A DNA stretch of 64,000 nucleotides from Dehalococcoidia bacterium (GCA_041649635.1 JBAZMV010000001.1:426164-490163); one strand, 5' to 3'; shown: positions 1,676 through 63,085, counted from the first letter of the stretch. Made by a program: numbers and translations. The notes: generated by a model from the sequence alone, not told the origin.

Positions 1676-2160
1676 TTATGTCAACCCCGTGCTCAAAGCT
1701 GTCATTGCGAGTCCTTCCCCGTTAGGAATATGCGGAAGGACGTGGCAATCTCACAGCTAATCAACCCCCTGCAATCCCCCAATACGTTGGTCCTCTGGTA
1801 GGGGCGACCCTTGTGGTCGCCCGCAGCGGGCAGGCACAAGACCTGCCCCTACATATAGGGGACACCCCTATAACCCCGTCATGAGACCCTGTCTCCTGTA
1901 CCTCTTTCTAAAACTACCCTCTCCCTTGAGGGGAGAGGGCTATGGTGAGAGCGTTGTTAGTTCCCTTCTCTTTGATAAAGAGAGGGACTCAAGGGTGAGT
2001 TCGTGCAAGTTCCCCCTCTTTTTAGAAGAGGGGGTAAGGGGGAGTTTATCTTTAAATTATCTTCCCTCTCCCTCTGCAGGGAGAGGGTCAGGGTGAGGGT
2101 CGTAATCCGTCATTCCGGTGAAAACTGGAATCCGGACAGGGCGAGGCGACCTCGCCCCTA
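1676..2160. repeat. Mosaic block of hairpin repeat modules (F,B,C,A,G,H,G,E,C)
   Basis: The same modules recur >10 times each elsewhere in the window in varying order and orientation. Confidence 0.85.
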
Positions 2161-5100
2161 CTTGCTCTTCTTTCTCCCGCCGCTCTTCTTCCCCGCGCTC
2201 TTCCTGGCCACGGTCTTCTTCTTAACGACGCGCTTCTTCTTCGCGGGAAACACTTTGGATACGGCCGCCGCTATCGACTCGCGGCTGAACGGCTTGGCTA
2301 TAACGCCGTCCACCAGTTTCTTCTTTTCCTCATCGAGATCTATGACCCAGCCCGTTATCAGCAACACGGGCACTTCAGGTTTTATCTTCTTAATGGCTCG
2401 GGCCACATCCCAGCCCGACATTTCAGGCATACCGAGGTCGGTAATTACTATGTCGTATTTGCCGTCCTTGAAAGCCTTGATCGCCTCGACTCCTCTGGTG
2501 AAATCCTTGACCCAGTGGCCGAAGTACTCCAGCGTCAGCCCCAGCGCCTTGAGCACCTCGGGCTCGTCATCGACCGTGAGTATGCTGGCTGGTTTGACCG
2601 CGACAGCCTTGCTCTTCCTGGCCTGCTTCCTAACTTCCTCCACGGCCAGGGGCAGCCTGATGTAGAACGTCGTCCCCCTGCCCACCTCGCTGTCGAACTT
2701 TATCATGCCGTTATGCCTTGAGATTATGCCGTAGGTAACGCTCAGCCCGAGCCCCGAACCCTTGGAGGCCTTGGTGGTAAAGAACGGCTGGAATACCTTG
2801 CTCTTCACCTTTTCAGGTATTCCGACCCCTGTATCCTTTATAATTATCTGAACCCACTCTTCTTCCTGCTCGCTCTTAACGGTGAGCTTGCCGCCTGTAG
2901 GCATGGCGTCCAGGGCATTGAACAGTATGTTCAGGAGCGCCTCACGAAGCTCGGCGGCATCGCCTGATACACGTCCCACAGTACCAAGTTCGTGCGTAAC
3001 CTTGATAGCGATCCCCTTGGTCTGTTCCAGCTCCACCCTGCGGGATTCCACCATCTTGAGGACGCCCTCCGCCACCTCGTTAACGTCAAGCGGCTCGAAG
3101 GGATGCTCCACGCGTATCCGCGCGAAGTCCTGCAGGCGCTTCACCGTCTTGGCCGCGTCGAGGGCCGCCTGCTCTATTATCTGGATGCCCTTCTTCACTT
3201 TATCATCCTTGACGTCATCAATGACGAGCTGCGTGCGCCCCAGTATGACCGCCAGCATATTGTTGAAATCATGCGCTATCCCGCTGGCCATCTCGCCCAT
3301 AGCCCGCAGCTTCTCCGACTGCACCATGCGCTCATGCGCCGTCTTGAGCTCTTCATAGGCGCGCTCCAGTTCCACTTCCGCCTTCTTATGCTCCGTGGTC
3401 TCCATGAAGCTGGCCAGGACGGCGCGCCTTCCCTTATACCTGACGGGCGTGACCCTCTCCATGACCCATATCTGACGGCCGTCCTTCCTCAACGCCCTGA
3501 ACTCATAAGGCTGAACGGATGCCCCCTGGATATTATCTACAGCCTTAGTTCTCACCGTATCCCTGTCATCCGGGTGGACAAAGTCTATCGCCTCCTGTCC
3601 CAAGAGCTCCTCGCTGCTATAACCTACAATCTCTTCGAACATGGGGTTCACGTAGATGAACCTTTTATTCTGCAGCAGATATATACCCATGGCGGCGTTA
3701 TCCAGCATGGATCGCGACAGCTCCTCGCTCTCCCTGAGCGCCTCCTCCGCCTTCTTGCGCTCCGTGATATCCTGCCCCTGGGCGATGATAGCCATAGGGG
3801 TCTTGCCGTCCTCGGCGTATATCGGCGATATGTTCCACAGCACCGTCCTGACACCCCCGTCGAGGTTTGCGATGGGTATCTCCACCACCTCCCACCTGGC
3901 GCCCCTCATCGCCGTCCTGATAAAGCTCATGGACCTTTCCCGCGTACCCTTGGGGAACAGTATCTCAAGGTCTTTGCCGATTACGGACTTGGCCTTCATG
4001 CCCGTGAGCCGCTCAAAGGCGCGATTGAACCTTGTGATGCGGAAATCCGGGGTCCAGACAACCATGGGCACGTTGGCGTGCTCGATGAGGTTCTCCATGT
4101 AGTCGCGGGTCTCCCTGAGCTTCTCCTCGGCCTTCTTGCGCTCAGTGATATCCGTATGCACGCCCACAAGCCCGATGACCTTGCCCTTTTCATCCTTTAT
4201 CGCGTCCGCGCGCTCAAGTACGATGAACCTGCGCCCGCTCTTAGATACCATCTCCACCTCCCCGAACCACGAACCTCCACCCATTATCGTATCGAACACC
4301 TTGCGGGCCACATGTTTATTTGCAAAAGCGGCCGGGCCTCCGCCCGCGGCCTCAAGCTCCTCCGGGGTGTACTCGAACAGCTCGGTGAAAGCCCTGTTGT
4401 GATAGAAGTGGTGCCCCTGCGCATCGGATATGCCGATGGCATCGCTTGATCCTTCAACCGCCTTATTGATGCGAAGCAGGGTTTCCTCCACCTTCTTGCG
4501 TTCGGTGATGTCGGTTATGATTCCCATAATCGCCTTCTCACCGACGTAACTTATTAGCTTGGTGCTAAGAATCGTATCAAGCCTCCGTCCGTCCTTAGTG
4601 ATGAGCGCATATTCGTAAGGATCGACATCCCGTCCTTGCATATGGGCCTGGAACTTCTCCTTTATCAGATCACGATATTCCGGCGCCGTTAAGGAATTAA
4701 AGTCGAAAGCTGGAGAGTAAAATTCCTCACTGGTATAGCCCATCATCTCCTCACAGCGGCGGTTGGCATAGACCACGTGCCCCTTCACGTTGATGAATAT
4801 CATATTGGGAGACTGTTCAGCCAGGTTCCGGAATTTCTCCTCGCTCTCCCTCAGCGCTTCCTCCGCTTCTTTGGCAGCGGTCACCTCTATAAGGGAAATC
4901 AATGCCGCCGGCTTCCCCTCATATTCGTACGACGTAGTAGAACCAGCTACCCATATCACACGGCCATTCACCGTCCTGGCCTTTATAACGGCTAGTTCCT
5001 TCCTTTCGGGATCGGCCATGGATTGAGCGAACTGCTGGAGCACCCAGTCCATATCTTCCGGCAGAACATGCTCCTTGATAGCATCAACGCCGACCATTTC

Positions 5101-62697: not shown

Positions 62698-62699
62698 AG

Positions 62700-63085
62700 C
62701 ATATACTCAGAGAGAATACCGTAGGTAGGGGCGAAAAATTTTTCGCCCCTACCCTGTGACCAACGTAATAAGAGGTACAGGAGACAAGGTCTCTTGACGG
62801 GGTTGTAGGGGTGTCCCCTAATCTTTTCATACATCCCCCAAGACTGGGGGATAGCAGGGGGTTGACCGGCTACGAGATTGCCACGTCGTCCTTCCATATA
62901 CCGTGATATCATGGAAGGACTCCTCGCAATTACAGTCCTAAAGGAAAGAGGTACCCCGATGAATCGTGGACGGGGTTGTAGGGGTGTCCCCTAAACATTT
63001 TTAAGTCCCCCAACGTATGGGGGACTAACAGGGGGTTCGGTTATTGTTTCCCCCTTTCAAGGGGGATTCCAGGGAGTTTCCACAA
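62700..63085. repeat. Mosaic repeat block (C,A rev,B,F/J,A',B,B')
   Basis: Modules as defined in the summary. Confidence 0.85.

Follow-up and report, generated by a model that had tools for sequence, protein, structure and literature searches.

Polar mosaics of palindromic repeat modules between the genes of an uncultured Dehalococcoidia bacterium

The intergenic regions of a 64,000-nucleotide stretch of DNA, referred to here as the window, are occupied by dense mosaics of short hairpin-forming repeats. The window is a chromosomal segment from an uncultured Dehalococcoidia (Chloroflexota) bacterium. On balance, the blocks are probably REP/BIME-like mosaics of non-autonomous palindromic DNA elements, which would be handled as single-stranded hairpins and owe their polarity to replication. 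Such mosaics would consist of two layers, with canonical REPs (families G, I, and O) in one and the remaining hairpins, as parts of the composites C1 and C2, in the other.

Hairpin modules and their families

The non-coding DNA of the window (13.1 kb) contains 126 hairpins with a stem of 8 bp or more, and the coding DNA (50.9 kb) contains 48. Shuffled non-coding DNA contains 9.5±2.3 such hairpins, and this ~13-fold excess bears out the hairpin-repeat mosaic proposed in a preliminary description of the window. Folding of block 12300-13045 as single-stranded DNA gives a z of -15.7, and, with up to three mismatches allowed, a 31-nt module is matched 12 times in the window compared with no match in 100 shuffles. 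A regex scan of the window resolves 14 families with at least three copies each, in keeping with the earlier figure of at least ten. The largest families are G (35 copies), B (25), A (21), F (~20 real copies), I (10-12), H (10-11), and J (9), followed by K (6), M and a (5 each), L and N (4 each), and O and P (3 each).

The modules sit in 18 intergenic blocks, matching the initial count, with one additional intragenic copy in ispE. Bases with at least two further copies in the window total 5612 (8.8%), of which 5070 are non-coding; the repeats are thus high in copy number and mainly extragenic, as REPs are. Merged repeat blocks cover ~6.2 kb (9.6% of the window), so that repeated sequence amounts to ~9-10% of the window and not to the ~14% originally estimated. 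The local repeat density is ~39-40% of non-coding bases. The blocks separate most transcription units, and the modules generate spurious small ORFs as had been suggested; the PPVSPNHGG peptide is translated C1 and the MGLRTHPT peptide is translated module I.

Neither known structured RNAs nor fragments of tRNAs account for the modules, as none of them matches Rfam even at E<=1; the only Rfam matches, at the gathering score and at E<=1 alike, are an SRP RNA, two tRNAs, and a c-di-GMP riboswitch. A phage, plasmid, or viral origin was rejected on the basis of no match in plasmids, phages, and viral contigs. A literature search by sequence string returned only unrelated primer coincidences, and a search combining Dehalococcoidia with palindromic repeats returned nothing relevant. 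A scan of a genome collection with a 31-mer recovered only one fragmented Dehalococcoidales MAG, which implies that the collection contains no well-assembled genome of this species.

Composite elements and the arrangement of blocks

Two composites organize the modules. C1 is ~106 nt long, has the order A-B-F, and occurs in 24 copies in the window. It consists of CAACCCCCTG, hairpin A, an A- or T-run, hairpin B (GGGGACACCCC), AACCCCG, the variable hairpin F, and ACCTCTTT. C2 runs G-K-J-H-G. This order and (M or a)-A-B-F are seen repeatedly, in other contigs as well as in the window, as in BIMEs and other mosaics, and a model search detects 181 copies of C1 in 566 kb of window and related contigs. 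Shuffled modules with a recurrent core order had been noted before; the order then given as F-B-A is probably C1. The possibility that C1 is a MITE was rejected, as its two ends (CAACCCCCTG and ACCTCTTT) are not inverted repeats and no clear target duplication is seen at ispE. No conserved target tetranucleotide is definable at the C1 ends.

The blocks between 1676 and 35371 lie on the plus strand. The first (1676-2160) contains M, a truncated A with a nested G+/G- REP doublet (1798-1852), B, F, J, J, K, J, H, and G-, and the C1 model matches it at 1756-1911. A divergent region (12259-13060) carries C1 (12372-12478), C2 as G-K-J-H-G (12575-12753), and then I, G, G, P, L, M, I, and G. A small block at 13613-13775 comprises a G REP and an O-like hairpin. 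The block at 14357-14850 consists of a, C1 (14405-14508), a partial C1 (14511-14576), G, and K, and the one at 15551-16170 of M, C1 (15639-15744), I, G, G, K, J, and a C1 variant (16022-16170) that carries an M-like insert. The block at 18611-18900 begins with C1 (18629-18734), in which the spacer is a T-run, continues with H, G, I, M, and G, and overlaps a spurious N-terminal extension of the ORF at 18797-19978. Further plus-strand blocks lie at 19979-20500 (C1 at 19996-20103, J, I, H, G-, G+, H, G-), 21078-21380 (C1 at 21096-21204, H, G-, L), and 34775-35371 (a, C1 at 34822-34930, M, C1 at 34995-35098, B, M, I, G-). The I copy in the last of these (35259-35283) is the last module with left-half polarity. 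The strand-switch interval that follows (35284-39748) spans two genes on the minus strand (35396-39231) and a portion of an intergenic block.

Minus-strand blocks begin at 39305-40171 with J, L, G-, a small ORF (39458-39646, not a module), J, P, I+, O, H-, I+, C1 (39961-40067), M, and a double-foot G (40143-40170). The block at 41304-41583 comprises a double-foot G, an H-like module, O, L, and C1 (41477-41583). The SRP RNA gene is followed after 32 nt by a C1 copy (44177-44283), at a position that C1 also occupies in the relative L010. Upstream of the SRP RNA gene, the block at 44649-45085 contains C1 (44649-44751), I+, G-, H-, N, C1 (44935-45040), and a; its a-A-B part has a positional counterpart in L010. 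The block at 46020-46737 contains P, I, I, C1 (46179-46284), I, a reversed C2 as G-H-J-K (46394-46539), and C1 (46630-46737), and the equivalent gene gap in L010 measures 243 nt and holds a single C1. Two sites carry no strand assignment, namely N with a head-to-head G+/G- REP doublet (52158-52213) at 52111-52250 and a solitary G, a perfect 30-nt double-foot palindrome, at 53738-53767. The remaining minus-strand blocks are found at 58060-58603 (J/K, M, G, G, C1 at 58311-58415, C1 at 58476-58582, a), 60776-61080 (G, double-foot G at 60870-60897, H-, C1 with N in the F position at 60978-61080), and 62724-63083 (double-foot G, GTAGGGGCGAAAAATTTTTCGCCCCTAC, C1 at 62764-62870, M, C1 at 62940-63044, a).

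The four blocks first given as examples (1676-2160, 12110-13045, 39235-40210, and 44115-45105) all agree with their description. The claim that blocks are built only from modules proved wrong, as 44115-45105 holds the SRP RNA gene (44315-44579), 15554-16484 holds the c-di-GMP riboswitch (16338-16419, outside the block at 15551-16170), and 39410-39675 holds a small ORF.

Strand polarity

All 46 oriented modules of families B, H, and I switch strand between 35.3 and 39.7 kb. B is on the plus strand in 13 copies on the left and on the minus strand in 12 on the right, H is plus in seven and minus in four, and I is minus in six and plus in four, with no exceptions in any family. The same is true of C1, with 12 plus-strand copies on the left and 12 minus-strand copies on the right, and C2 also changes strand within 35284-39748. 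The modules had been described as occurring in both orientations; both strands are indeed used, but each oriented family keeps to one strand up to 35.3 kb and to the other from 39.7 kb. An extra 10 kb on the right adds one oriented module only, an H- that matches the right-half polarity. The strand-switch arrangement is also present in an ENA contig, L099.

The orientation of the elements is unrelated to that of the flanking genes (17 co-oriented, 32 anti-oriented, 32 divergent, and 27 convergent). Neighbouring copies are co-oriented in 85 pairs and not in 10. Orientation is linked to composition; across 391 genes, those that share the orientation of C1 have a mean GC3 skew of -0.006, and those opposed to it one of -0.080 (p = 7e-7). 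The cumulative GC skew of the window peaks at 32-34 kb. The left half of the window lacks the GC3-skew asymmetry and there is no convincing match to a dif-like site near the polarity switch, so a replication terminus at this position is a weak reading.

REPs and RAYT homologues

The families G, I, and O, with ~50 copies together, are palindromes of 24-30 nt with a 5' GTAG foot and represent canonical REPs. The definition of a GTAG-type REP as an imperfect palindrome of 20-40 nt with a 5' GT[AG]G foot applies to G (35 copies), I (10), and O. The GTAG foot is absent from A, B, F, H, J, K, L, M, N, and P; the foot of B is (A/T)TAGGGG or a variant of it, and its outer pairs vary. Many copies of G, I, and O are of the double-foot type, in which GTAGGGGC and GCCCCTAC form the two ends and enclose a variable core that is a perfect palindrome. 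At least nine distinct 12-nt cores, all perfect palindromes, occur between the invariant feet. In the window, double-foot G copies start at 40143, 41304, 53738, 60870, and 62724, and head-to-head G doublets are found at 1798/1828 and 52158/52190.

GTAG and double-foot REPs are of the type linked to subclass 2.4 RAYT (TnpA_REP) HUH tyrosine transposases (PMC6006769, PMC3733652). A search for a transposase found none within the 64-kb window, and no IS200-type TnpA or TnpB was found. RAYT genes are present in two related genomes, with homologues on contigs L069 and L094. The gene at L069:1060-1653 encodes a RAYT (Pfam Y1_Tnp, 25.7 bits; NCBIfam REP_Tyr_transpos, E = 1e-17) with an 81% identical homologue, P0124, on a 1.2-Mb Dehalococcoidia MAG contig that carries the syntenic locus L010. 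The homologues contain in-frame variants of RGTACRAPT, VGAKNFSPL, and GDHKDRPY; together with the double-foot G copies, these variants in the relatives' RAYTs correspond to subclass 2.4 TnpA_REP as defined in PMC6006769. Two further RAYT homologues, P0122 and P0123, belong to other samples. The arrangement of a classical REPtron, in which the RAYT is flanked by its REPs, was rejected for L069, L094, and L095, as no flanking REPs are present there; the only G palindrome within several kb of the RAYT is internal to the gene. C1 and C2 lack the GTAG foot and thus have no direct tie to a RAYT.

Insertion polymorphism

The intragenic C1 copy lies in frame in ispE (42563-42661, minus strand) and encodes HQPPVSPNHGGIKKIGGHPQAPVRNNPVPLF. 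The site is full in the window and in L006, longer in L008, and empty in L007 and L010. It is partial in the relic P0020 and in L005, which is shorter by 51 nt between direct repeats of GGGAC, and it is occupied by a G REP instead in L009. All versions of the site are in frame. The search for a target-site duplication at the ispE junctions returned only ambiguous AGGGA and GGA matches. Gene gaps common to the window and L010 contain one C1 in L010 compared with 10-15 modules in the window. Nested insertions are seen at 1798-1852 and 16022-16170.

Mechanism and competing explanations

The favored reading is that the elements are processed as single-stranded DNA hairpins. A Y1/HUH enzyme, conceivably of the RAYT type even for C1 and C2, would cut and rejoin them on the lagging-strand template, and new units would insert beside or inside older ones so that blocks grow by accretion. 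Such a mechanism would explain why terminal inverted repeats and target duplications are absent, why units are nested, and why the strand polarity is almost absolute. It would also account for the flip in polarity, as a place where replication forks converge, i.e. a terminus, or as an inversion breakpoint. Variants with a hairpin followed by a T-run may secondarily serve as intrinsic terminators at some sites.

The conservation of C1 bears on how it is maintained. Its core is almost invariant among 138 distinct copies, including contigs that range in GC from 0.44 to 0.69, and the mean identity of copies is 0.64 both within the window and between genomes, which indicates no within-genome homogenization. 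The near-invariant core and the equal identities are more in line with long-term constraint than with a recent selfish burst. C1 also occupies the same intergenic positions in a relative with only 66% IspE identity, which hints at a host function. The copies at positions shared with L010 are not clearly each other's closest relatives, so that shared ancestry and a shared hot spot look alike. It is possible, as a tentative proposal, that C1 is an undescribed and ancient strand-polar element of Chloroflexota lineages, characterized by the invariant GGGGACACCCC hairpin and its C-run flanks. Its orientation would report replication direction, the flip at 35-40 kb would be the terminus, and host function or mechanistic constraint would outweigh selfish spread, with hairpins, GTAG REPs among them, accreting around it. 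C1 might, for example, serve on single-stranded DNA as a site of loading or cleavage, or act as a switch between hairpin and G-quadruplex.

Transcription-related signatures raise a different explanation, in which the modules are host cis-acting RNA elements (terminators, insulators, or 3'-end stabilizers) that evolved or were selected in place, their mobility being incidental. Terminator-like sites number 27 and 24 compared with 8.4±3 in shuffles, a ~3-fold enrichment, and most lie within modules. The layout of an intrinsic terminator, with a GC-rich hairpin and a T-run in sense and 3' of a gene, is found in a subset of copies (e.g. 18646, 20014, 21113, 46218, and 58352); in C1 behind the plus-strand genes at 18.6, 20.0, and 21.1 kb, the T-run follows hairpin A. 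The spacer type, T-run or A-run, is associated with the direction of the gene running into C1 (Fisher p = 0.035), and C1 lies directly 3' of the SRP RNA gene in two distant genomes. The suggestion that each hairpin could be a terminator is weak despite this enrichment, given that the orientation of the elements ignores gene direction and that copies also lie in divergent promoter regions and inside a gene. Approximately half of the sites with a hairpin and T-run point away from any incoming gene, the divergent regions at 12.1-13.0 and 62.7-63.1 kb are also filled with blocks, and the ispE copy is translated. Mismatches of the G:T and A:C types are symmetric, a DNA rather than an RNA signature with no sign of selection on one transcribed strand, and an RNA-strand signature was rejected for this reason. 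Loopless perfect palindromes such as G are, moreover, not required by RNA hairpins. In-place RNA elements are an unlikely explanation. A promoter function was likewise rejected, as TTGAC at the C1 end yields a few -35-like matches but no consistent promoter geometry.

C1 may alternatively be a polar DNA signal acting at the level of the chromosome, either a site for a replication, segregation, or repair factor or a G-quadruplex strand kept off the lagging-strand template, and maintained by selection and not by transposition. The antisense strand of C1 contains four runs of G4-G5 and is predicted to be G-quadruplex-capable. The exceptionless polarity with a single switch, the correlation with GC3 skew, the GC-independent core, the lack of homogenization, and the conserved positions would all suit such a signal. 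The known polar motifs of 8-12 nt are, however, far simpler than 106 nt with variable hairpins, and insertion, deletion, and replacement at ispE are typical of mobile DNA. No partner protein was found, and in other contigs 10 of 95 neighbouring pairs disagree in orientation. A signal of this kind is considered unlikely.

That C1 copies are genes for small structured non-coding RNAs, or an RNA-derived retro-element, is very improbable. The conserved length of 106 nt, the three hairpins, and the 181 copies retrieved by the model invite the idea, as do compensatory changes at two base pairs of hairpin B (36 cells; reached in 0 of 500 shuffles). However, the stem cores never vary, most of the structure is without covariation support, and wobble tolerance is equal on both strands. 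Neither an Rfam match, a consistent promoter, nor a nearby reverse transcriptase was found, and one copy is translated.

The contigs in other assemblies speak to the integrity of the window. An ENA contig is 100% identical to it at 7322-28608 and 25396-47669, a second is identical across 62698-63090, and Logan contigs are 100% identical at 16135-18660, 35203-38517, and 63331-64000. Logan short-read contigs break at repeat blocks and none spans 38.5-39.7 kb, so a mis-join there retains a small probability. Collapsed repeats, a caveat of the preliminary description, or an inverted mis-join as the source of the repeats or of the polarity switch can nonetheless be regarded as extremely improbable, given the 100% identity of ENA and Logan contigs over 7.3-47.7 kb, block interiors included, the same modules in at least 80 contigs from many samples, and the locally coherent orientation in other contigs.

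Significance

The repeats, at ~40% of the non-coding DNA here, affect genome annotation in several ways. They break short-read assemblies, create spurious ORFs and false N-terminal extensions (e.g. 12738-13076, 18797-19024, and 44864-45100), and can form part of the reading frame of essential genes. They should be allowed for when Dehalococcoidia MAGs are annotated and binned. The link between REPs and replication has so far been proposed mostly by analogy with IS608. Strict polarity of several families combined with compositional skew makes it testable whether REP-type elements are tied to the processing of single-stranded DNA during replication. Were the polarity to extend across the genome, it would provide a replichore marker for uncultured genomes with weak GC skew.

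Comparison with known systems

The mosaics share features with several families of bacterial repeats. Like IS200/IS605 elements and PATEs, they have subterminal hairpins and neither terminal inverted repeats nor target duplications, and their orientation would, as in IS200/IS605, be biased relative to replication. Insertion into the lagging-strand template is documented for IS608 and ISDra2 (as cited in PMC3333891 and PMC6006769). They differ from IS200/IS605 in the lack of TnpA or TnpB and of a target tetranucleotide at the C1 ends, and in the embedding of C1 in larger composites. With the Rickettsia palindromic elements (RPE), they share a palindromic repeat in frame in a housekeeping gene, here ispE, that adds ~30 residues in a loop and is variably present among relatives. 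In contrast with RPE, there is only one such case in 64 kb and the elements are overwhelmingly intergenic.

The REPs of subclass 2.4, or RAYT group 4 (Di Nocera 2013, PMC3733652; Quentin 2018, PMC6006769), have in common with G, I, and O the GTAG foot, often with a 3' CTAC. Both are high-copy and extragenic, occur as singletons, head-to-head doublets, and clusters, show complementary variation in their stems, and occasionally lie inside genes. In contrast with these REPs, the RAYT is known here from relatives only, without flanking REPs there, and most families (A, B, F, H, J, K, L, M, N, and P) are without the GTAG foot.

Further parallels are the BIMEs of enterobacteria and the neisserial intergenic mosaics (NIME; RS/dRS3, Correia). 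Mosaic clustering is the defining trait of both. They likewise combine REP-type palindromes with conserved accessory motifs in recurrent orders and vary in composition between related genomes, and module H may resemble the neisserial dRS3 (ATTCCC-N8-GGGAAT). The claim that the blocks go beyond REP/BIME holds only in part, as ~50 copies (G, I, and O) belong to the ordinary GTAG or double-foot REPs and mosaic clustering is not peculiar to the blocks. In contrast with BIMEs and NIME, the mosaics comprise at least 14 families and two long composites, occupy ~39% of non-coding bases, and display strict polarity across multiple families. The mosaic is probably a dense form of the known REP/BIME repeats.

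Extent and genomic setting of the repeats

The non-coding DNA of the window (13.1 kb) holds 126 hairpins whose stems reach 8 bp or more, against 9.5±2.3 in shuffles, and the 50.9 kb of coding DNA holds 48. Self-comparison identifies 5612 bases (8.8%) that recur in two or more further copies within the window; 5070 of these are non-coding and constitute 39% of the non-coding DNA. The block at 12300-13045 folds into a chain of local hairpins (z = -15.7). The preliminary description counted ~18 blocks, and both this count and its example blocks hold. Its repeat share of ~14% of the window is too high, given the 8.8% of repeated bases and merged blocks that sum to about 6.2 kb, and its term 'genome-wide' reaches beyond what a single window covers. 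Nor are the blocks built only of modules, as had been claimed, since they contain an SRP RNA (44315-44579), a c-di-GMP riboswitch (16338-16419) and a small ORF (39458-39646). The riboswitch, of the c-di-GMP-I-GGC type on the plus strand, scores 63.4 bits, above the gathering score, and lies immediately 5' of a 261-aa ORF (16485-17270) without a Pfam match. Repeat blocks are crossed by spurious ORFs or by false N-terminal extensions of real genes, at 12738-13076, 18797-19024, 44864-45100 and 46232-46570; public gene calls begin later than these ORFs (317 versus 393 aa; 296-305 versus 375 aa).

The window comes from an unremarkable part of the chromosome of an uncultured bacterium. Its proteins include glutamate dehydrogenase, BipA, LepA, KsgA, IspE, ThiL, TsaE/TsaB, Ndk and RNase HII, its genes also include a glycosyltransferase cluster, and its RNA genes are one large SRP RNA and two tRNAs. 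Among named genomes, the nearest relatives of its IspE, and likewise of the contigs that bear the repeats, are MAGs of Dehalococcoidia and Dehalococcoidales; the organism is accordingly taken to belong to the Dehalococcoidia. The repeats are not an artefact of one assembly, because the window is matched at 100% identity by several contigs of independent origin: an ENA contig over 7322-28608 and 25396-47669, Logan contigs over 16135-18660, 35203-38517 and 63331-64000, and a second ENA contig over 62698-63090. L096, another contig of that ENA sample, matches exactly over the repeat block and downstream genes; its positions 1-470 differ from window 62230-62700 at 64 positions, all in the 3' part of the gene at 61819-62697, which may reflect either a second strain in the sample or a chimeric end of the contig.

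The only sizeable repeats in the coding DNA come from the gene at 2158-10095 (minus strand). It encodes a 2645-aa protein in which ~20 PAS-domain units follow one another in tandem, repeating about every 375-400 nt. Repeat modules are absent from a low-GC island at 26000-34700 (0.36-0.43 versus about 0.55 elsewhere), which carries genes for glycosyl- and glycerophosphotransferases, a flippase and PMT_2; this is probably a cell-envelope cluster gained by horizontal transfer. Two adjoining minus-strand ORFs (49599-50057 and 50086-50553), each of ~150 aa and without a Pfam match, have a 300-nt stretch in common at 80% identity and are therefore a tandem gene duplication; the pair is also present at the syntenic position in L010, a related Dehalococcoidia MAG.

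Module families and composites

Fourteen module families, each with at least three copies in the window, were defined. Family A is TCCCCCA-loop-TGGGGGA, family a is TCCCCCTT..AAGGGGGA, and B is GGGGACACCCC with 2-4 outer pairs. F has variable stems, such as CAGGAGAC/GTCTCCTG, CAGAGGG/CCCTCTG and GAAGGAG/CTCCTTC. The remaining families are G (GTAGGGGC-core-GCCC(CTAC)), H (GTCATTCCGGCGAAGGCCGGAATCC), I (GTAGGGTGGGTT..AACCCACC), J (CCCTCTCCCT..AGGGAGAGGG), K (CCCCCTCTT..AAGAGGGGG), L (TGTTGAAGGTG..CACCTTCAACA), M (GTCCTTCC..GGAAGGAC, within GTCATTGCGAG...GTGGCAATCTC), N (GCCCCGATATATCGGGGC), O (GGGTTTGAT..ATCAAACCC) and P (CCCCCTTT..AAAGGGGG). G, I and O possess a 5' GTAG foot, the defining mark of REPs (PMC3733652). 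In many G copies the palindrome is 'double-foot': its ends are invariant (GTAGGGGC and GCCCCTAC), and its 12-nt core varies from copy to copy while always remaining perfectly self-complementary (9 distinct cores, each paired at 6/6 positions). At 1798/1828 and 52158/52190, two G copies stand head-to-head as a doublet.

Modules are joined into two composites. C1 has the fixed order (M, a, or GTCGYTGGKCGATAG extension) - CAACCCCCTG - A - A/T-rich spacer - B - AACCCCG - F - ACCTCTTT, and its unpaired motifs are >90% conserved across 126 aligned copies. The covariance model derived from this alignment detects 24 copies in the window, and 181 over the 566 kb that the window and related contigs make up together. 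C2 (G-K-J-H-G) recurs at 2012-2160, 12575-12753, 14778-14834 and 15867-15973, is reversed at 46394-46539, and is found in at least seven other contigs. Nesting is also observed: the A-B spacer of C1 is replaced by a G doublet at 1798-1852, and by an M-like hairpin at 16022-16170 and in the related contig L006. Variants of C1 with an identical B-plus-flank 23-mer and a longer A-like hairpin (GTCCCCCTTCTCCTgcAGGAGAAGGGGGAC) are carried by contigs of GC 0.57-0.69 (L041, L043, L049, L063, L072 and L079), so C1 extends beyond the lineage of the window. Metagenomes of sediment and groundwater contain the 23-mer in 81 stretches, and no match was found in viral contigs.

Two outer pairs of B change on both sides and stay paired (UA to CG in 7 copies, AU to GC in 29). 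Of all cells, 99.6% are paired, and 0/500 shuffles attain the observed values. The G/C cores of A and B show zero variation among 138 distinct copies. G:T and A:C mismatches are equally frequent (23/25 in A, 7/8 in B, 21/13 in F), and nothing points to selection on one transcribed strand. Together with the loop-less perfect G palindromes, this symmetry favours hairpins at the DNA level. The antisense strand of C1 (e.g. 39961-40067, plus strand) contains four G4-G5 runs, two of which double as hairpin arms, and a hairpin/G-quadruplex alternative is conceivable from the sequence.

Terminator use is probably real for some copies and is not general. Terminator-like sites are ~3-fold enriched. In the C1 spacer, either A is followed by a T-run or B is preceded by an A-run, and the two types would place a terminator on opposite strands. 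Which type is present shows a weak correlation with the direction from which a gene runs in (p = 0.035), and about half of such sites have no gene running towards them.

An insertion in ispE and the age of C1

One C1 copy (42563-42661) lies in frame within ispE (42338-43315, minus strand), which encodes an essential kinase of the isoprenoid pathway. The repeat-derived insert of 31 residues adds 'HQPPVSPNHGGIKKIGGHPQAPVRNNPVPLF' between the two GHMP-kinase domains. The site differs among homologues, with every version in frame: it is full in the window and L006, empty (285 aa) in L007 and L010, 51 nt shorter between GGGAC direct repeats in L005, reduced to a relic in P0020, longer in L008 and P0006, and occupied instead by a G-type REP in L009.

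L010, whose IspE is 66% identical, is syntenic with the window over LepA-NTP_transferase-MBL-SRP RNA-KsgA-IspE-VTT and has C1 copies in the same three gaps, one directly 3' of the SRP RNA. The gaps of L010 are short (243 nt versus 797 nt), with a single unit in place of the 10-15 modules of the window, indicating that blocks grow by accretion around older units. The mean identity of C1 copies is 0.64 both within the window and to copies in other genomes, and copies at positions common to the window and L010 are not clearly each other's closest relatives. The C1 family is old, without a recent burst or homogenisation.

Strand polarity of the modules

To the left in the window, each oriented family is confined to a single strand, and to the right it is confined to the opposite strand, a regularity that is absent from the preliminary description. 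B has 13 plus-strand copies up to 35119 and 12 minus-strand copies from 40002; H has 7 plus-strand copies up to 21230 and 4 minus-strand copies from 39857; I has 6 minus-strand copies up to 35283 and 4 plus-strand copies from 39749. Model hits of C1 comprise 12 plus-strand copies on the left and 12 minus-strand copies on the right. In other contigs, H and B are always co-oriented, and neighbouring C1 copies are co-oriented in 85/95 pairs.

Gene orientation was rejected as the source of this polarity, with 6-7 of the B copies in the window anti-oriented to both flanking genes. In other contigs, neighbouring genes run in the same direction as C1 in 17 cases and against it in 32; a further 32 cases fall in divergent gaps and 27 in convergent ones. 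Across the window and 70 or more contigs, mean GC3 skew is -0.006 (n = 175) for genes coding on the C1 sense strand and -0.080 (n = 216) for those on the opposite strand (p = 7e-7), which makes the C1 sense strand the relatively G-rich strand. By convention, the relatively G-rich strand is the leading strand. Within the window, the GC3 skew of the right half agrees with C1 orientation (p = 4e-4) and the left half is neutral. The cumulative GC skew peaks at 32-34 kb, just left of the switch interval (35284-39748). Polarity and skew together make the flip resemble converging replichores or an inversion breakpoint, and it could be either; a replication terminus at 35284-39748 is offered as a hypothesis. 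A search for a dif-like site near the switch found none, and support for the arrangement at 38.5-39.7 kb comes from the ENA assembly only.

Candidate enzyme and probable mechanism

No transposase was found in the window. A tblastn search with E. coli RayT, a REP-associated tyrosine transposase (RAYT, TnpA_REP), retrieved a 197-aa ORF (1060-1653, minus strand) in the repeat-bearing contig L069. It matches Pfam Y1_Tnp above the cut-off and the NCBIfam REP-associated tyrosine transposase model at E = 1e-17, below the equivalog cut-off. A homologue 81% identical to it (P0124) is on the same 1.2-Mb MAG contig as L010. The RAYT homologues sit in a conserved neighbourhood of housekeeping-type genes, and no REPs flank those at L069:1060-1653 (-) and L094:6001-6615 (+). 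Their genes contain a G palindrome whose variant differs among homologues, and the same variants are free-standing in the window: the in-frame peptides RGTACRAPT or VGARHAVPL correspond to GTAGGGGCACGGCATGCCGTGCCCCTAC, and VGAKNFSPL to GTAGGGGCGAAAAATTTTTCGCCCCTAC. Double-foot REPs, and REPs in frame inside the transposase gene, characterise subclass 2.4 TnpA_REP, or RAYT group 4 (Quentin et al., PMC6006769); the homologues and double-foot G match this description, and the G/I/O layer is hence already a known kind.

The best-supported account of the blocks is most likely a REP/BIME-type system, in which a Y1/HUH enzyme would recognise, cut and rejoin single-stranded hairpins. For IS608 and ISDra2, processing occurs on the lagging-strand template, and the same is proposed for REPs (PMC3333891, PMC6006769). 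Such processing fits the lack of inverted ends or target duplications, the nested units, the skew-tied polarity, and the ispE inserts that come and go seamlessly. The presence of a RAYT in the genome of the window, and its action on C1 and C2, which lack the GTAG foot, are proposed as candidates. The near-invariant core, age and conserved positions of C1 leave room for a host function.

Comparison with known mosaics

No description of C1, or of such repeats in Dehalococcoidia, was found in the literature searched. The repeat system resembles REP/BIME and neisserial mosaics in its working and in part is one of them, since its G, I and O families are REPs. It differs from these mosaics in its larger number of co-resident families, its two long conserved composites, its local density, and a multi-family polarity with a sharp switch.
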